Position numbers and translations under genes: made by a program
Assembly (NCBI GenBank): GCA_033178465.1
Contig: GCA_033178465.1_4726.5
Reading direction: 5' to 3' (one strand)
Origin: a phage
DNA length: 32,613 bases
Notes under the pieces: generated by a model
Databases searched by the model: none
What the model saw: only the letters and a program-made list of their open reading frames with translations
Told to the model about the DNA's origin: nothing
Shown: one piece after another, positions 17,349-26,921 of the stretch
How positions within the stretch are numbered: position 1 is the first letter of the stretch
Layout of the letters: every line of letters begins with the position of its first letter

Positions 17349-20012
<2,664 letters not shown>

Positions 20013-20024
20013 TGGGGTGGCGCT

Positions 20025-20492
20025 ATGGTCAAGGACTGGACACCCGAAGAAGACGCGATATTGATTACTCTGTACCGAAACGGTATCCCGATGCAAGAGA
20101 TTGCGGCACGGCTTGACCGAACAGAAGGTTCGGTTCAAGGTCGAATTAACCGTAATCGCAAGCGCTGGAAACTCATGTCACGTCACCGCTATTGTTGTTT
20201 CGAAGAACGCGTGATGTTAGCCGATTATCTTAAGACACACAGCGTGAAAGAAGCCGCGGTAATGTTCAATCGTAGCGTGGATGCGATCGCTAAACTCTGC
20301 TACCGTTATGGCATTGTTGCATGCAAAGCGCAACGTCGAGAGATGATTTATCATCGAATACATACTCTTAGAAAAGAGAAGAAAACCTGGGAGAGAATAC
20401 AGAATATCATCAATAACGAATTTAACACCCATTACACGTTAAGCGGTGTTCATAGCCTCTACTACACTCAAGCATTAAAACGCGTAGAATAG
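20025..20492 (+). CDS. Myb/SANT-like HTH repeat protein, array member 2
   Basis: DWTPEEDAILITLY...EIAARLDRTEGSVQGRI plus two further repeats. Confidence 0.6.
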   Translation: MVKDWTPEEDAILITLYRNGIPMQEIAARLDRTEGSVQGRINRNRKRWKLMSRHRYCCFEERVMLADYLKTHSVKEAAVMFNRSVDAIAKLCYRYGIVACKAQRREMIYHRIHTLRKEKKTWERIQNIINNEFNTHYTLSGVHSLYYTQALKRVE

Positions 20493-20505
20493 GAGAAATC
20501 TCGTT

Positions 20506-21009
20506 GTGAAACCTCCAGTACGACGATGGAATCGTAAGGATGATGAACAGTTGCTGGAATTGTATTATCGTCACCCGAAATTAAAAATCCGTGAAATCGC
20601 AGAAATCATGGAAACAACGTACGGTGCAATTAAATCGAGGTTGATATACTTAAATGTCGAACGTCGTAAACCACATAAACGTTTCAGTGTCGATGAGTTG
20701 GAATATATCAGAGCACACTGCAAACACAAAAGTTACAAACAACTCGCACGCGATTTAAACAGGGATCCAAACAGTATTAGAACGATAGCACACCGTCATG
20801 GCTTCAAGCGGTTAAGCGAGGATGATACTAAGATCTTCATAGCCTTCGTTGATACATTGTTAGAAGAAACACAGGACTGGCACCACATTGCTGAACGGGT
20901 TAATGCGCATTTCGGTATAACACGTACGAAGCAGGCTGTCTATCAGCGTTGGTGGCATCATAGAAAGAAAAGAGGGATACAAGATGGGACGATCTCAACC
21001 GTGGCGTGA
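20506..21009 (+). CDS. Myb/SANT-like HTH repeat protein, array member 3
   Basis: GTG start 9 nt after AGGAGA; RWNRKDDEQLLELY...EIAEIMETTYGAIKSRL; C-terminal VYQRWWHHRKKRG. Confidence 0.6.
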   Translation: MKPPVRRWNRKDDEQLLELYYRHPKLKIREIAEIMETTYGAIKSRLIYLNVERRKPHKRFSVDELEYIRAHCKHKSYKQLARDLNRDPNSIRTIAHRHGFKRLSEDDTKIFIAFVDTLLEETQDWHHIAERVNAHFGITRTKQAVYQRWWHHRKKRGIQDGTISTVA

Positions 21010-21487
21010 CGACGAGCTGAAAGACGTCACGCATCTGTACTTAAACACATCGATGACGATTGATGAAATCGCACAACGGACAGGACGAACACGCGCCAGC
21101 ATCGACGCGCGTCTGGGACGTTTGGGAATACGTCAACGCCAAAAGCATCGACCTTATACGGAAGAAGAACGCGCGTACATCAAGTCCGTAATCAAACAAA
21201 AATCGCTGCGTGAGATCGCGTACGATTTAAACCGTTCGTATGACTCGGTTCGTCAGTTTATACGGCTTAACGGAATTCGTCGTGCATTAACCAAGCAAGA
21301 ACGGGAAGCGATCATCGCGTTTATCGCGGAACGACTTAACGTTACCCAAAATTGGAATGTTATTACGTACGACGTTGTTGTTAAATTTGGGATTACAACG
21401 AATAAACATGCGTTGTATCAACGTTGGTGTTACTACACGAAAAACAAAGGAGCTGCCTATGCGCAAATACCGTCGCTGGACAGATGA
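20984..21487 (+). CDS. Myb/SANT-like HTH repeat protein, array member 4
   Basis: Overlaps member 3 by 26 nt; PWRDDELKDVTHLY...; YTEEERAYIKSVIKQKSLREIAYDLNRSYDSVRQ; C-terminal LYQRWCYYTKNKG. Confidence 0.6.
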   Translation: MGRSQPWRDDELKDVTHLYLNTSMTIDEIAQRTGRTRASIDARLGRLGIRQRQKHRPYTEEERAYIKSVIKQKSLREIAYDLNRSYDSVRQFIRLNGIRRALTKQEREAIIAFIAERLNVTQNWNVITYDVVVKFGITTNKHALYQRWCYYTKNKGAAYAQIPSLDR

Positions 21488-21989
21488 GGAACTCTCACGC
21501 CTCGAGAATTACGCGGACCAGATACCCAGACCACCGGTTAGTGAGCTGGCTACTGTATTTCAACGCACAGAAAGCGCAATTAAGAATAAGTTGTATATGT
21601 TGTTCCCTTCGATGAGAACCAATGAGGCATATACGGACAACGAGATTTCCTATATTCGTGACAATATCCATAGATACTCGGTTAAACAACTGTCAAATCA
21701 TCTTGGTCGATCGAGAGCGAGTGTCGCCTCCGTAATACGACGACTCAAGCTACGACGATACGATCCAGATGAATGGTGCAAAATTTCAGACCGTATTACA
21801 GCACTTCGACGTGAAGGAGTTAACTGGAGAGAAGTTGCTCGCATTATCAGCGTCGAGTTCAAACGGGAGTACCGTCACACACATCTTTGTCAGCGTTACT
21901 ATTATAACACACGTGGTAAGAAATGGCTGCAGGTAAAGAATACACAACAACCGAAATCGCATTCATACGCCGAAACGCGGGCGTCATGA
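21459..21989 (+). CDS. Myb/SANT-like HTH repeat protein, array member 5
   Basis: Track ORF 21357 trimmed to the ATG at 21459, 6 nt after AAAGGAG; RWTDEELSRLENY...; YTDNEISYIRDNIHRYSVKQLSNHLGRSRASV. Confidence 0.6.
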   Translation: MRKYRRWTDEELSRLENYADQIPRPPVSELATVFQRTESAIKNKLYMLFPSMRTNEAYTDNEISYIRDNIHRYSVKQLSNHLGRSRASVASVIRRLKLRRYDPDEWCKISDRITALRREGVNWREVARIISVEFKREYRHTHLCQRYYYNTRGKKWLQVKNTQQPKSHSYAETRAS

Positions 21990-22429
21990 CATCGAAAGAA
22001 ATAGGTGAAGCGTTAGGACGGAGTCAGAGAGCAATTAGCGCGATTGCTTCAATGCTTAACATTAAACTGAGTCATCGTAATCGGAACGATATCTTATCGC
22101 GGGTTGTCCATTTACGTGATGGCGAGAACCGTCGGTGGCGGGAGATCATTACCATCATTCAGGATGAGTTTGACGTCACGTATTCCGAATCGGGACTACA
22201 GCGTGGATATCAACGTGTGAAGCTCACGACGATAAAGAACACCGATCCTACTCGTCTTCGTATGTTAAATGAAATCCATCGTTATCGGCAATACGATAAA
22301 CTTCCATGGAAAGAGGTGCAAAAACGTATCGAGGTACGTTACAACAAACATTATCAAATCACAACACTTTGTCAAATGTACCGACGTCATCGTAATCGAC
22401 TGTTAGGTAATGAGGGAATTTTAGCATGA
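21923..22429 (+). CDS. Myb/SANT-like HTH repeat protein, array member 6
   Basis: YTTTEIAFIRRNAGVMTSKEIGEALGRSQRAISAI repeat starts at the N-terminus, so the 21923 start (67-nt overlap) is preferred over the ATG at 21986. Confidence 0.5.
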   Translation: MAAGKEYTTTEIAFIRRNAGVMTSKEIGEALGRSQRAISAIASMLNIKLSHRNRNDILSRVVHLRDGENRRWREIITIIQDEFDVTYSESGLQRGYQRVKLTTIKNTDPTRLRMLNEIHRYRQYDKLPWKEVQKRIEVRYNKHYQITTLCQMYRRHRNRLLGNEGILA

Positions 22430-22959
22430 GCATCAAAACAGTAGTTATTAATGAACGGCCGTTCTATTGCGTTATCGCCTCAACGGCTGCCGATCCACAC
22501 CTTTACCCACATAAACGACAGATTCGTGAGTTGTACCGTATTCTCGACGATGTAGAATCAGAGGCATGGGCTACCACGTTTATGTTTGAGAATATCCCCG
22601 ATTTAAAACGCGAGTACGATGCTTTAGAATTAGAAAAGCGTTTACCGGATACTGCAATGTTGGTCGTTATGATCGATGCTATCGCTTCGATACCGGTAGG
22701 CCTCTTGGAAGTGAATACAGAGAGCCATATGGGCATTCATGACGTTACATCGATTATTGTAAAACCCGAATATCGCGGACGCGGGATCGGCCATGCCTTG
22801 ATGAACGAAGCACGTAACATCGCTTACCGATGCGGTGGTCATTCTATCGGTCTGGATGTTCGCGCCGACAATGATGAAGCCCAGGCGTTCTACGAGTCTG
22901 AGGGTTTCACGGTAAGATCGTCCTGGTTAACATCGTCCGTAAAACACAAAGGAGCTTAA
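22426..22959 (+). CDS. GNAT-family N-acetyltransferase
   Basis: Acetyl-CoA binding signature IIVKPEYRGRGIGHALM followed by AQAFYESEGF; ATGA overlap with upstream gene. Confidence 0.8.
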   Translation: MSIKTVVINERPFYCVIASTAADPHLYPHKRQIRELYRILDDVESEAWATTFMFENIPDLKREYDALELEKRLPDTAMLVVMIDAIASIPVGLLEVNTESHMGIHDVTSIIVKPEYRGRGIGHALMNEARNIAYRCGGHSIGLDVRADNDEAQAFYESEGFTVRSSWLTSSVKHKGA

Positions 22960-22960
22960 C

Positions 22961-23389
22961 ATGAGCTGGTTCGATCGTAAATTCTTCACGTTGGAAGAAG
23001 TCTTGGACCTACCTTGCGACGCGAATAAGGAAAAGATCGCCGACATGCAACGAATCGCACTAACTCACGCGATTAATGATGTCTCACAGTTCTCTATCGG
23101 TGATCGTGTTGAGCTTCCGTTCGGAACCGGAGAAGAAGGAGATAACACAGCGGTTAAATTCGTTCCCGCCGTTGTCGTGGGTGTCCATTTCACGACATCA
23201 CAAGTCAGTTATGATCTTGCGATACCTATCGATGGTTGTGACTTGTTTATGGTCTTCAACAATTTCCGTGGTGATATGCGTACGATAGACGGAAGCAATG
23301 CGACCGATTTCATCGAGAAACGTGTTGCCGAAGCGTTGGTGAAGAAAACGCTCGGTACACCGAATCTTAAAGTTATTGAAAATGAATAA
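22961..23389 (+). CDS. hypothetical protein
   Basis: Track ORF; AAGGAG 7 nt upstream of ATG. Confidence 0.55.
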   Translation: MSWFDRKFFTLEEVLDLPCDANKEKIADMQRIALTHAINDVSQFSIGDRVELPFGTGEEGDNTAVKFVPAVVVGVHFTTSQVSYDLAIPIDGCDLFMVFNNFRGDMRTIDGSNATDFIEKRVAEALVKKTLGTPNLKVIENE

Positions 23390-23394
23390 TCGTA

Positions 23395-23413
23395 CCCTCC
23401 CGACATGGGAGGG
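23395..23413 (+). terminator. GC stem-loop (CCCTCCC-GACAT-GGGAGGG) followed by CTTATGCCG; terminator-like or regulatory
   Basis: 7-bp stem 6 nt after the stop at 23389; same architecture as the hairpins at 819 and 30254. Confidence 0.4.
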
Positions 23414-23437
23414 CTTATGCCGATAAAAGGAAACAAA

Positions 23438-24088
23438 ATGAACGATGTTATCGCATTACTCACGCAAGGCGAAACCAAAATGCCGTTGCCGTACCAGCAG
23501 CTTGCTGCTATCTTAGAACCGATGACGCACCATCAACAATGGATTGTCCGTGAAGAATATACCCAACACGTCGGATGGTCGTTGTTAACCATGGATACCG
23601 CGCTCCAGTTAGCAAACATCTGTTACGGGCGACGTGTTGCTGACCTGGGTTGTGGGACAGGTTACCTGACCTATGTGTTGCGTAAACTTGGTGTTGAGGA
23701 CATTACCGCTTACGATACGGAATTACATCCCCACCCGTTTATCGAGGACATTCAGCAAGCCGACTACACAAACATCGATCTTTCACAGTACGACGTTATT
23801 CTACTGTCATGGCCACCTTACGACGAACCACAAGCTGCATTGGTTGCCGCACGTATCCAACCTCACCAGCTTTTGGTCTATCAGGGTGAAGGATACGGAG
23901 GCTGCACTGGAGATGACACCTTCCATTCGATGCTTCGTTCGGATTTTGCCTCTGTGGAAGAATTTACTGTGAACTTAAATGCACGCCATTTGAACTTTTA
24001 CGGTATATACGACTCATGGGAGGTTTATCGCAAGCAATCAGAATTTACAAAACAAAAGGATGATTTGGAAGATATGCGTCATGAATGA
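23438..24088 (+). CDS. class I SAM-dependent methyltransferase, small amino-methyltransferase-like with PPY motif
   Basis: Track ORF 23405 trimmed to the ATG at 23438 after AAAGGA; motif I VADLGCGTGYL, acidic motif II ITAYDTE, motif IV LLSWPPY. Confidence 0.75.
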   Translation: MNDVIALLTQGETKMPLPYQQLAAILEPMTHHQQWIVREEYTQHVGWSLLTMDTALQLANICYGRRVADLGCGTGYLTYVLRKLGVEDITAYDTELHPHPFIEDIQQADYTNIDLSQYDVILLSWPPYDEPQAALVAARIQPHQLLVYQGEGYGGCTGDDTFHSMLRSDFASVEEFTVNLNARHLNFYGIYDSWEVYRKQSEFTKQKDDLEDMRHE

Positions 24089-24113
24089 AGGAAAAGAAAT
24101 GGAGGACCGTTTT

Positions 24114-24785
24114 ATGTTAATCGTAACTAGCAGACAGGAAGTATCTGACTGGCTTAACACTCATCTTAACGCTAACGCCTCCCCAGGGGGCGTTGTGATC
24201 AATCCCGTTTATAATGGGCTGCCGTTCAAAGCTCGATATGAACGAGGTGCGTTGGTATCTGCGAAAGTGAATGACGTCTCATTAAATCCAGAACATGCTT
24301 TACGCGTATTTCGTATTCCGTTAACGATCAATTATCGCGGTTTAGCAAAAGTGATGGTCGTTTCTGGTACGGTATGTAAATACGCTGAAGCGTCTATCGA
24401 TGATTTTCATAATGGGGTAAGACACTTTAGTGCGGTCGCTGTAGGTTATCCTGAAGCTGATCGGGTTGAGGTTATCGAACAGGGATCTACAGCTATTCCG
24501 TCCGACGTGTTTAAACTGCGTTGTTTGTTCGAGACTTGGCGATTAGCCAGCTTCAAACAGTCGCGAATCGTTCCTCATCGAACCGTATCGGATGCGCTAC
24601 GGCAGCTTGATGTGATCGTCGCAACGTTAAATCGGACAAAAGGTATTTCTGCGTTGTTGTTCTCGTTGAACAGTCCAGACGACCGTTCACGAACGCAGAA
24701 TCCAGACTGTGTGTTCTTAACCCCGGAAGGAGTTATCCATGGTTTACCGAAGAAGTCTCTGGAAGATAAGATGGCAACGTCTTAA
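24114..24785 (+). CDS. hypothetical protein
   Basis: Track ORF 24060 trimmed to the ATG at 24114, 7 nt after GGAGGA; in-frame ATGs at 24081 and 24099 are alternatives. Confidence 0.5.
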   Translation: MLIVTSRQEVSDWLNTHLNANASPGGVVINPVYNGLPFKARYERGALVSAKVNDVSLNPEHALRVFRIPLTINYRGLAKVMVVSGTVCKYAEASIDDFHNGVRHFSAVAVGYPEADRVEVIEQGSTAIPSDVFKLRCLFETWRLASFKQSRIVPHRTVSDALRQLDVIVATLNRTKGISALLFSLNSPDDRSRTQNPDCVFLTPEGVIHGLPKKSLEDKMATS

Positions 24786-24829
24786 GTGGTTATGTAAAGA
24801 GAAATGGAAAAAGATAAAGAGGGCTTTAA

Positions 24830-25429
24830 ATGACAGTGGTGAGTATTACTGAGCCGCGGTTTATCCGCGAAGTTATCGACCGTCGTCGATCGGTGATCGT
24901 TGCTTACGGACGAATGGAAAGTACCGCACCTCAAGAACTTTGCGTGCTATTCCAGGGGTGTTTCATACACCGACAGGAAGGCCATAAGGGTAAAATCGTC
25001 CCTAGTGATTTGATTAAAGCAATGCGTAAGATAGATGTTGAACAACGCAAGCTGAATCTATCGCATCGTCTGCCTCCCCTCGATGAGGCCGAAGCCAAAG
25101 ACTTCGCAGATCGGGTTATGAAATCAGCTATCGTTCAGTACTTCGGAAACATGCCAAGCAAACGTAATAAAGCTTTACGTGTTGAATCCGATCAGCTGTT
25201 GCATTGGAATTCGAAAGCGTTCCGATTCGAAGAGGTGTTCTTACCCACTTTCGGTAAACGGCTGGCGTGGGACTTCTCAACAGAGTATGTTTACAACGGC
25301 GACATCCCGCCAGAAATACAACATAAGAAAGGGAAAGCACTAGAAGAGCAAACAGAAGCTGCAGTCATCGAACAGGTTTACCAGCGTCTGACATTCTGGT
25401 TGTTCGGACCAATACTGGAACCTAAGTAA
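24830..25429 (+). CDS. hypothetical protein
   Basis: Track ORF; AGAGGG 7 nt upstream of ATG. Confidence 0.55.
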   Translation: MTVVSITEPRFIREVIDRRRSVIVAYGRMESTAPQELCVLFQGCFIHRQEGHKGKIVPSDLIKAMRKIDVEQRKLNLSHRLPPLDEAEAKDFADRVMKSAIVQYFGNMPSKRNKALRVESDQLLHWNSKAFRFEEVFLPTFGKRLAWDFSTEYVYNGDIPPEIQHKKGKALEEQTEAAVIEQVYQRLTFWLFGPILEPK

Positions 25430-25510
25430 AAAAAAACATTACACACCAAATAACTTTTTAATACCCGGTAAATCCTCCTTATCTAAACATATTTCAAAAG
25501 GACAGTAATC

Positions 25511-25957
25511 ATGCAAATTACAAAAGCAGAACGTATCGAAATTTTCAAAACCACAAAAACCAACGAACAGAATCGAATCGCTAACAATACTCGACTGGTT
25601 GCTCGAATGTTGCGTGCAGGCTACGAGCAAGCCTCTCGATTTACCAGCCACTTAAAGCAGACCGGCATTGCTTATTACGACGAAGATAAAGATATTCTGA
25701 TTTACACCGGATGGATCGAAAACCATTGCTGGTGCGATCATGGACATGCGATAATGCACCTGCTCCCAAGCGGTAACGTTAGCGTAACGTTTACACTAAC
25801 GCCGTTGATGGTACGTCGTGCATTCCGCATGAATAACTTCATGGAGCTGCAGGCGTATGTTCCGGTAGCCGCCAAAATGGTATTACCGACGATCCATGAT
25901 TGCACGGATATCGTATTCGATGGAAAAGACCTATCCGTCACGTACTATTTAGATTGA
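25511..25957 (+). CDS. hypothetical protein
   Basis: Track ORF; AAGGA upstream; preceded by an 80-nt AT-rich intergenic region. Confidence 0.55.
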   Translation: MQITKAERIEIFKTTKTNEQNRIANNTRLVARMLRAGYEQASRFTSHLKQTGIAYYDEDKDILIYTGWIENHCWCDHGHAIMHLLPSGNVSVTFTLTPLMVRRAFRMNNFMELQAYVPVAAKMVLPTIHDCTDIVFDGKDLSVTYYLD

Positions 25958-25964
25958 GGGAAAG

Positions 25965-26921
25965 ATGATGGCTGCGCTAACGCCCAGATACTTCACCTTC
26001 GTTTGCGGTAATAAACCGAAATTCAGTTACAGTGATGATATCCATCGCATGCTACGTAACCGCGTAGCAAAAGTGCTGATTGCACTCATTTCGGAGCGTT
26101 ACGGGTTTGGTCTCGATTACCCCAAAGAAGGAGGTCGACTGGCTGCCCCGTTACCACCGAATGATCATCCGTTACGCCCGTTAGTAGATACGGTGATTCT
26201 TCCACTGTTCACTGAACAGACACCCCTAACAAAAAGTTTATGTCGTCATTTGCTCTATGATTACAGTGTGCTGTGGGAGCCATTACGTACGATGCAACCA
26301 CCGCGTAATTTAGGCGTATTTGACAAGTATGAAATATCAGCCATTGTTAATCTGCTTGGTGGTGAACAGGCTTTAGGTTGGCACGTTGTCGACGAACTTA
26401 CGATAAGTTGGGAGGTGAGTAACGTCACAGATTACGATATAGACCGTAAACAAATCTGTCTTTGGGAGCATACCGGCCCGACAGTGCAAGAACTGCTCGA
26501 TATGCCCAATCTCTTCTACACGGGAGTGTTACGGGGTTATCGGCCCGGGGATAAGGACTTCTACCTCGAAAATCATCGATGGTTAACACGATACGGGCAC
26601 ACTTTAACCTACCCAAAACTTGAAGAAATGGGTAATAATGTTTGGTGTATCCGTAATTTAGCCATTCTTCCGGATAACGAGCATTTTGCGAAAATACTTG
26701 CAGATAAAGGAGGTACGGAAGATATTTACAGCGTGTGTTTTGATTTAGGCGTCGCCTGTATCTTTCGTATCGCTGACGTCGGAGGGAGTCCACGCATCGA
26801 GATGGTTGAACGTTATCGTTGGACAGAAGGTGCGATACCACCTGATGAAATACTCAAACTTTTCCCTGAGGTTGTGGTTAAACGGATTAATGAGATCCAA
26901 CCCTACTTAGCAAAAGCGTGA
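25965..26921 (+). CDS. hypothetical protein
   Basis: Track ORF; GAGGGA upstream of ATG; 318 aa. Confidence 0.55.
   Translation: MMAALTPRYFTFVCGNKPKFSYSDDIHRMLRNRVAKVLIALISERYGFGLDYPKEGGRLAAPLPPNDHPLRPLVDTVILPLFTEQTPLTKSLCRHLLYDYSVLWEPLRTMQPPRNLGVFDKYEISAIVNLLGGEQALGWHVVDELTISWEVSNVTDYDIDRKQICLWEHTGPTVQELLDMPNLFYTGVLRGYRPGDKDFYLENHRWLTRYGHTLTYPKLEEMGNNVWCIRNLAILPDNEHFAKILADKGGTEDIYSVCFDLGVACIFRIADVGGSPRIEMVERYRWTEGAIPPDEILKLFPEVVVKRINEIQPYLAKA

Follow-up and report, generated by a model that had tools for sequence, protein, structure and literature searches.

Organization of the locus

The stretch of DNA analysed here, hereafter the window (32,613 nucleotides (nt), contig GCA_033178465.1_4726.5 of the phage assembly GCA_033178465.1), carries three consecutive genes coding for an acetyltransferase of the GNAT family, a small protein and a class I S-adenosylmethionine (SAM)-dependent methyltransferase (MTase), located immediately after an array of Myb-like genes. 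A first-pass annotation of the sequence had taken the GNAT and MTase genes as a pair co-located with the array and suggesting a modification-based host-takeover or anti-restriction function. The analysis favours another interpretation, to which a probability of about 0.6 is assigned: both proteins would be independent accessory enzymes that share one gene string by chance in a chimallivirus of the Goslar type, the GNAT being a spermidine acetyltransferase and the MTase an enzyme of an orphan family.

Across nt 21900-24800 the window is 96.8% identical to Escherichia phage vB_EcoM_Goslar, a jumbo phage of 237 kb described in the literature as a nucleus-forming chimallivirus. The three open reading frames (ORFs) are orthologs of Goslar gp113 (acetyltransferase), gp112 (hypothetical) and gp111 (class I SAM-dependent methyltransferase). 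The ORFs, the quoted peptide motifs, the ATGA overlap and the hairpin of the first-pass annotation were all found where it had placed them (Table 1).

Table 1. Coordinates of the genes, motifs and structural elements in the window (aa, amino acids)
Feature	Position	Strand	Remarks
Last Myb-like array gene	21923-22429		Stop codon overlapped by the GNAT start codon as ATGA
GNAT acetyltransferase, 177 aa, ortholog of Goslar gp113/QBO63906	22426..22959	+	Pfam; identity to gp113
GNAT motif A, acetyl-CoA pyrophosphate-binding loop, IIVKPEYRGRGIGHALM	22753..22803	+	Direct reading; covered by the GNAT alignments to Pfam and PDB
Small ORF, 142 aa, ortholog of Goslar gp112	22961..23389	+	
GC-rich hairpin between gp112 and MTase, 7-bp stem and 5-nt loop	23395..23413	+	
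Class I SAM-dependent MTase, 223 aa, ortholog of Goslar gp111	23417..24088	+	Alternative starts 23438, 23405
MTase motif I VADLGCGTGYL, SAM-binding GxGxG loop after β1	23636..23668	+	Aligns to motif I of many MTases
MTase motif II ITAYDTE	23702..23722	+	D104 closes β2 and is predicted to bind the SAM ribose
MTase variant motif IV LLSWPPY, directly after β4	23801..23821	+	hhalign register with (N/D)PP(Y/F), Trp for Asn/Asp
MTase family signature GEGYGGCTGDD, loop after β5	23885..23917	+	E162, C167 and D170 nearly invariant

Association of the GNAT and MTase genes

Homologs of the MTase are present in 32 phage records and homologs of the GNAT in 31, and four phages beyond Goslar carry both (KpLz_1_41, LPKP23, MJ359 and KpYy_2_45). 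The two genes lie 194-198 kb apart in those four phages, or 105-107 kb apart if the genome is circular. The Erwinia phages phiEaH2 and Caitlin, whose spermidine N-acetyltransferases (SATs) are confirmed (PMC9992855), are not among the 32 MTase-matching phage records. When the surroundings of the MTase were inspected at 66 fetched loci, homologs of the GNAT, gp112, gp110 and the Myb-like proteins were located within 4 kb of it in two Goslar-type genomes only (L010, L011), and the biggest neighbour cluster comprised 5-6 related loci. The 149 ORFs flanking the MTase at 42 non-redundant loci contained no recurrent or enriched Pfam family; HNH was seen three times, and no GNAT was present among the 25 families listed. 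The two genes adjoin only in Goslar-type genomes, and a GNAT-MTase pair linked to a Myb-like array does not hold as a general arrangement. The co-location of the MTase with the GNAT and the array is lineage-specific and most likely incidental.

The divergence between the window and Goslar points in the same direction. Synonymous divergence (dS) amounts to 0.21 for the GNAT gene and 0.235 for the MTase gene, and to 0.033 and 0.036 for gp112 and the last array gene, respectively. This mosaic, in which the patches are single genes, suggests that Goslar-like phages have recently exchanged genes one by one through recombination, which would account for the string better than inheritance of one cassette.

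The acetyltransferase

The GNAT matches PF00583 (Acetyltransf_1) with 55.3 bits (cut-off 20.7; E 1e-14), and Acetyltransf_7, Acetyltransf_10 and FR47 likewise exceed their Pfam cut-offs. Its motif A, IIVKPEYRGRGIGHALM, holds the sequence R-G-R-G-I-G, an R-x-x-G-x-G core that agrees with the Q/R-x-x-G-x-G/A consensus. SpeG, PaiA and diamine acetyltransferases count among its nearest relatives in the PDB and NCBIfam. Only 2 of the 177 residues differ from Goslar gp113 (Goslar_00113, QBO63906.1 in GenBank), an amino acid identity of 98.9%, and the ratio of non-synonymous to synonymous divergence (dN/dS) of 0.02-0.08 against Goslar relatives indicates that the gene is under purifying selection.

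Nine candidate viral SATs were expressed by Li et al. in E. coli BL21 ΔspeG, and N-acetylspermidine was detected by liquid chromatography-mass spectrometry (LC-MS) with Goslar QBO63906 (177 aa) (PNAS 2023, PMC9992855). Because this 98.9%-identical ortholog has published activity, the window GNAT is most plausibly a spermidine N-acetyltransferase whose target is a host metabolite. It would move the acetyl group of acetyl-CoA onto host spermidine, giving inactive N-acetylspermidine; when it is expressed and which advantage it brings to the phage are points that we infer. Li et al. proposed, as a speculation labelled as such, that early depletion of spermidine might impair CRISPR adaptation or restriction fidelity (PMC9992855). 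An anti-restriction role of this kind, itself speculation, would follow a metabolite route and not DNA modification. The proposal that the GNAT is a covalent-modification enzyme stands in its domain call; as a candidate for modifying macromolecules the protein is no longer open, since its Goslar ortholog is a published spermidine acetyltransferase. The GNAT adds nothing new, being a near-identical copy of that enzyme.

The methyltransferase and its family

The MTase frame, which ends at 24088, has in-frame ATG codons at 23405, 23417 and 23438, corresponding to proteins of 227, 223 and 216 aa. RefSeq chooses the second for Goslar; the third, which gives the 216 aa of the first-pass annotation, has an AAGGA Shine-Dalgarno (SD)-like sequence. 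Either is more likely than 23405, which is disfavoured because that ATG sits in the loop of the hairpin. With a dN/dS of 0.10-0.15 against Goslar relatives, this gene is also under purifying selection.

An AlphaFold (AF2) model built on an alignment of 38 sequences reached a predicted local distance difference test (pLDDT) of 89 and a predicted template modelling (pTM) score of 0.86. It displays the canonical class I strand order, β1-β5 followed by a β6/β7 hairpin in a seven-stranded α/β arrangement, as expected for the fold, and consists of four N-terminal helices (residues 11-73) and the core, with no further domain. Both domain calls of the first-pass annotation, GNAT and Rossmann-fold SAM methyltransferase, proved correct. 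Its judgement that the protein is too small to carry the target-recognition domain of a DNA MTase was also sound: because there is no extra domain and the shortest members of the family have only 173-180 aa, the enzyme is unlikely to be a sequence-specific DNA MTase.

No curated cut-off of Pfam or NCBIfam was reached by the MTase, and the sub-threshold matches cover motifs I-III only. The best Pfam matches were Methyltransf_23 (21.8 bits against 27) and MTS (20.0 against 23, over motif I only), and all NCBIfam matches remained below 23 bits against cut-offs above 100. None of the 38 family members scanned exceeded a curated MTase cut-off either. The sole significant family match was PHROG 19090 (function not assigned), with E 7e-18 over residues 48-209. 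Queries of PDB sequences with the protein alone, with the profile of the whole family and with that of its C-terminal half gave no informative relative, and up to E<=10 the profile from motif IV to the C-terminus retrieved not one PDB methyltransferase, whatever its type. The top PDB match of Foldseek, nicotianamine synthase, had a TM-score (template modelling score) of only 0.38. Unannotated methyltransferases of Klosneuvirinae-type giant viruses in BFVD have a similar fold (TM 0.54-0.63). The profile and structure searches that the first-pass annotation had recommended support the class I fold and give no placement in an amino-MTase family.

The family is large, as an exhaustive profile search collected 8,427 clusters at 50% identity with E<=1e-3, and 2,412 with E<=1e-30. 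A pattern scan confirmed 58 MTase loci on viral contigs of IMG/VR (in many cases with genome sizes of 100-480 kb) and just eight loci, all in metagenome-assembled genomes (MAGs), in one-genome-per-species collections covering 185,579 species; complete E. coli genomes contained no copy. The phage records with a homolog have Aeromonas, Klebsiella, Serratia, Salmonella, Xanthomonas, Pseudomonas and Stenotrophomonas as hosts, and homologs also occur in the haloarchaeal viruses PhiCh1, phiH and HGTV-1. One homolog was annotated by its depositor as 'tRNA methyltransferase'. Judged from these matches, the MTase is a member of a large, virus-dominated and uncharacterised class I family that is almost absent from cellular genomes. 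The literature searched for WPPY, GGCTGDD, Goslar gp111/112/113 and phage MTase anti-defence gave nothing on this MTase, nor any relevant occurrence of the WPPY and GGCTGDD strings. The main text of the paper on the Goslar virion by electron cryo-microscopy (cryoEM) and mass spectrometry does not mention gp111-113, and the transposon-mutagenesis papers found do not cover Goslar.

Several homologs have unusual architectures or neighbours. A NADAR domain lies N-terminal to the MTase in one homolog of 337 aa (P0125, loci L069-L071). TPR-MTase proteins have 850-930 aa (P0064, P0069), and similar long MTase-containing ORFs are found in Obscuribacterales and proteobacterial MAGs (cf. L003, L004); other proteins contain 2-4 tandem MTase copies and reach 1,932 aa (P0050, P0138). 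A homolog adjoins an RlaP nucleotidyltransferase in one viral contig and a T4-type polynucleotide kinase-phosphatase (Pnk) in another (L061:4672-5655, L046:3416-4342). The fusions are too rare to interpret, the contigs of the NADAR fusion being too short for context, and all of these associations are hints too sparse to weigh.

Conserved residues and relation to amino-methyltransferases

Conservation was calculated from 152 aligned sequences, the window protein and the domains of 146 of the best-scoring divergent representatives. The glycines of motif I (G82, G84 and G86) are conserved at 93-98%, and D104, which ends β2 (residues 100-104 in the model), at 97%, being invariant in a narrower family alignment. 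The protein has both the GxGxG loop and the acidic residue ending β2 that characterise class I enzymes, and from conservation and fold we infer that motifs I-II bind SAM. Two further elements go beyond what had been noticed before. One is the family-invariant Trp that precedes the PPY (W136 in 147 of the 152 sequences, 96%; P137 97%, P138 81%, Y139 93%). The other, GEGYGGCTGDD, is a second signature of still higher conservation (G161/E162 99%, G166/C167 95%, T168 90%, D170 81%) and occupies the loop after β5, which is probably an active-site or substrate loop; GEGxGGCTGDD has no counterpart in any PDB sequence. Conservation of 80-99% was found for R49, W58, Y87, D104, W136, P137, P138, Y139, G161, E162, G166, C167, T168, D170, F173 and D203. 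On the alignment, WPPY(D) after β4 and GEGxGGCTGDD after β5 are the two signatures that define the family.

The relation to known enzymes was examined by aligning 12 E. coli K-12 reference enzymes to the family profile with hhalign. PrmC/HemK aligned with 92% probability over 77 columns, placing the W-P-P-Y of the family on N183-P-P-Y186. RsmD and Dam gave weaker alignments (both below 1%, Dam 0.3%) with W136 on D127 (DPPF) and D181 (DPPY), respectively. Generic enzymes used as controls obtained comparable values (BioC 95%, UbiG 93%, TehB 92%, CmoB 89%), all over motifs I-II only; because such O- and C-MTases equal PrmC, the overall score does not separate families. PrmC alone among the 12 references produced an alignment that runs on through motif IV. 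The 5-methyluracil (m5U) enzymes TrmA and RlmD reached 7-12% over motif I only, and E. coli TrmA has DPPR at residue 299. Kinship with spermidine synthase, an aminopropyltransferase, was not supported by the value obtained for SpeE (0.2%).

In amino-MTases, the Asp, Asn or Ser of motif IV hydrogen-bonds the target amino group. The claim that the PPY of the MTase is the motif IV of amino-MTases was supported as regards position, as the PP-aromatic stretch comes right after β4 and in register with NPPY of PrmC (184-186), DPPF of RsmD (128-130) and DPPY of Dam (182-184); by this register WPPY is positionally homologous to that motif. The claim did not hold as regards the catalytic residue, since the position before PP is occupied by Trp and not by a polar residue. 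With Trp in 96% of the sequences and no amino-MTase profile above its cut-off, the amino-MTase class is not established. An unambiguous grouping with O- or C-MTases, the outcome that was to refute the first-pass assignment, was not seen with hhalign, and a grouping with amino-MTases was not seen either.

Neighbouring elements

The small gene of unrecognised function that had been noticed between the GNAT and MTase genes is a genuine ORF. The gp112 ortholog gave no match in Pfam, PHROG, NCBIfam or PADLOC scans, its homologs are confined to Goslar-like phages (57-97% identity) and its AlphaFold model is unusable (pLDDT 44). The hairpin that follows it, CCCTCCC-GACAT-GGGAGGG, folds with a minimum free energy of -16.2 kcal/mol over a 61-nt segment (z = -2.7); its stem is identical in Goslar, with a single change in the loop. 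An intrinsic terminator was considered and rejected, as the T-run is absent and the terminator scan gives no call. The loop contains the ATG at 23405, and the 3' arm contains an SD-like GGGAGGG located 4 nt upstream of the ATG at 23417. The hairpin could be a translational or RNA-stability element for the MTase; by occluding the SD-like sequence it may modulate translation. Both gp112 and the hairpin are lineage-specific.

The upstream Myb-like array proved genuine. It consists of six tandem Myb/helix-turn-helix (HTH) paralogs (19665-22429), each with two or three HTH units resembling Myb/SANT or sigma-70 region 4, and pairwise identities to the first paralog are 22-36%. Several of the genes overlap the next one by a few to ~70 nt, and the last paralog, without the N-terminal repeat, is extended at its C-terminus. 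RefSeq labels just one member, gp119, as SANT/Myb. Downstream of the MTase, the region 24060-26921 (orthologs of Goslar gp110 to gp106) has zero Pfam or PHROG matches. Between 19000 and 27000 of the window, sigma-70 promoter-like sites were fewer than in shuffled sequences (6 against 14.5 ± 4.3 expected) and terminator-like sites were at chance level (8 against 6.9 expected), counts that fit transcription by phage-encoded RNA polymerases.

Discussion

The locus is composed of one published enzyme beside one orphan enzyme family, and is not a modification module. As to the reaction of the MTase, the best guess is that it would N-methylate, at an amino or amide nitrogen, a substrate of the host cytoplasm that is conserved universally and is not DNA. 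The spread of the family over viruses of bacteria, archaea and eukaryotes together with its strict conservation implies a single universal substrate, and candidates would be a protein of the translation apparatus methylated on a basic side chain or at its N-terminus, a polyamine or another small cationic amine, and an RNA base. The reactive pocket would be built by the aromatic WPPY loop after β4 and the acidic, Gly-rich E-G-x-G-G-C-T-G-D-D loop after β5, in which E162 or D170 would replace the hydrogen-bonding role of the absent Asn/Asp. The protein is acidic (isoelectric point (pI) 4.7, net charge -18), as are most members of the family (median pI 5.4, 73% below pI 6), a weak argument that the enzyme does not bind nucleic acid on its own and that its substrate is a small cationic molecule or a protein of basic character. 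N-methylation of a universal non-DNA target, either a protein or a small amine, is put forward tentatively, at somewhat less than even odds.

Several considerations weigh against this interpretation. The Asn/Asp usual for amino-group methylation is absent, N-methylation leaves unexplained why a Cys conserved at 95% accompanies a Glu conserved at 99% after β5, and net charge is a weak proxy for substrate class. The RlaP/Pnk RNA-repair neighbours at a few loci and the NADAR fusion hint at nucleic-acid or ADP-ribose biology. Regarding the GNAT, the NCBIfam equivalog cut-offs for SpeG, PaiA and RimI are missed (PaiA-type 36.3 bits against 250; rimI 54.3 against 86.4; no SpeG model above its cut-off), and the SAT assay of the Goslar protein was in vivo and qualitative (PMC9992855). 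GNATs are promiscuous, so the physiological substrate may be other than spermidine. Finally, the three genes are tightly packed on one strand and may be co-expressed, with some functional coupling within the Goslar lineage.

This packing is the point of departure for the opposite view, according to which the GNAT, gp112 and the MTase would constitute one functional module, working either by sequential acetylation and methylation of polyamines or by a modification-based host takeover tied to the Myb-like regulators. The genes follow each other on the same strand with overlaps or very short gaps, and this order is kept in Goslar and one metagenomic relative. The acidic, aromatic pocket of the MTase would suit a cationic amine such as spermidine, polyamines are universal, in keeping with the spread of the family in viruses of all three domains, and nicotianamine synthase, the top Foldseek match, is an aminoalkyl-transferring SAM enzyme, though with the TM-score of 0.38. 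However, the adjacency is restricted to one genus. Elsewhere the MTase has no homolog of the GNAT, gp112 or the Myb-like proteins within a distance of 4 kb, the flanking ORFs show no enriched family, and the homologs of KpLz_1_41, LPKP23, MJ359 and KpYy_2_45 stand 105-198 kb apart. The Erwinia phages with confirmed SATs fall outside the MTase-matching records, the SpeE alignment reaches only 0.2%, and the mosaic of dS values (0.21-0.24 for the GNAT and MTase genes against about 0.03 for gp112 and the last array gene) does not suit genes travelling together. The functional module is very improbable, and two independent enzymes remain the preferred reading of the locus.

Two other reactions have to be considered for the MTase itself. 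It could be an amino-methyltransferase of nucleic acids, producing N6-methyladenine (m6A), N4-methylcytosine (m4C) or N2-methylguanine (m2G) on DNA, rRNA or tRNA and thereby shielding phage nucleic acid or reprogramming host RNA; the Trp would stack on a flipped base and an acidic residue of the β5 loop would accept the hydrogen bond. The register of PPY with PrmC, RsmD and Dam agrees with this possibility, as do the extension of the PrmC alignment, alone among the 12, through motif IV, weak PADLOC matches to a Type II MTase and to mad2, the RlaP or Pnk neighbours at 2-3 of about 43 loci, the NADAR fusion and the homolog deposited as a tRNA methyltransferase. Yet the invariant Trp occupies the D/N/S position, the model offers no target-recognition or RNA-binding domain, the protein and nearly three quarters of its family (73% with pI <6) are acidic, RsmD and Dam align with less than 1% probability and no amino-MTase profile exceeds its cut-off; this reading is rather unlikely. 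The likeness of PPY to amino-MTases could instead be misleading, since m5U enzymes also have a DPPR motif IV, and E. coli TrmA has it at residue 299. RNA 5-methylcytosine (m5C) and m5U enzymes (TrmA, RumA, NSUN) carry their catalytic Cys in the loop after β5, where C167 (95%) and E162 (99%) of the MTase are also found. The enzyme would then be a C5-pyrimidine methyltransferase (m5U- or m5C-like) or another covalent-catalysis enzyme with Cys167 as the nucleophile and Glu162 as the general acid/base. This mechanism is improbable: the alignments of TrmA and RlmD, restricted to motif I, reach just 7-12%, a search with the C-terminal-half profile up to E<=10 retrieves neither m5U nor m5C enzymes, the Cys is located 6 residues past β5 and not about 2 as in RumA-type enzymes, a TRAM or RNA-binding domain is absent and the protein is acidic.

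A broader claim can also be formulated, which we regard as rather doubtful but consequential. The WPPY/GEGxGGCTGDD proteins would represent an unrecognised class of viral enzymes that methylate one universal cellular molecule by a non-canonical mechanism, in which a Trp/Tyr aromatic clamp and a Glu/Cys/Asp loop stand in for the Asn/Asp acceptor; the molecule could be a polyamine, a metabolite or immune signal derived from a nucleotide, or a conserved residue within the translation apparatus. Were this true, it would mean a widespread and overlooked activity of host manipulation or counter-defence. While the gene pair itself is little surprising, the orphan MTase family is a worthwhile biochemical target: the identity of its substrate could reveal a general viral strategy, be it metabolic takeover or counter-defence, and would broaden what is known of the chemistry of PPY-type methyltransferases. 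Direct testing is feasible, since Goslar grows on E. coli and is amenable to genetics.

Comparison with known systems places the two enzymes very differently. The phage SATs (Goslar QBO63906, phiEaH2 and Caitlin), SpeG and PaiA have the GNAT fold and the R-x-x-G-x-G loop in common with the window protein. From SpeG and PaiA it is remote in sequence, scoring 36 bits where NCBIfam requires 250, and the Goslar SAT and the Erwinia phage SAT share only 30% identity (PMC9992855). Generic class I MTases (Methyltransf_23/25/11; BioC, UbiG and TehB; METTL21 lysine MTases; halide MTase) resemble the MTase only over motifs I-II, in 35-43 columns, and lack the PPY motif IV and the β5-loop signature; the MTase reaches none of their gathering thresholds. 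PrmC, RsmD, Dam, Mtq2, METTL5 and Trm11/Trm14 share with the MTase the class I fold and both the order and the spacing of motifs I, II and IV, and RsmD, Mtq2 and METTL5 are also close in size. The MTase differs from the HemK/PrmC-type enzymes by its invariant Trp in place of Asn/Asp, by being unalignable after motif IV, by the GEGxGGCTGDD loop with its invariant Cys, by the lack of evidence for a Trm112-type partner or a nucleic-acid-binding module, by its acidity and by belonging to a family that is nearly exclusively viral. True members of that family are found in PHROG 19090 and among the genes of jumbo phages and haloviruses named 'class I SAM-dependent methyltransferase' by their depositors; none is characterised, so membership conveys no functional information, and they share both signatures with the window protein, to which tblastn gives identities of 24-37%.

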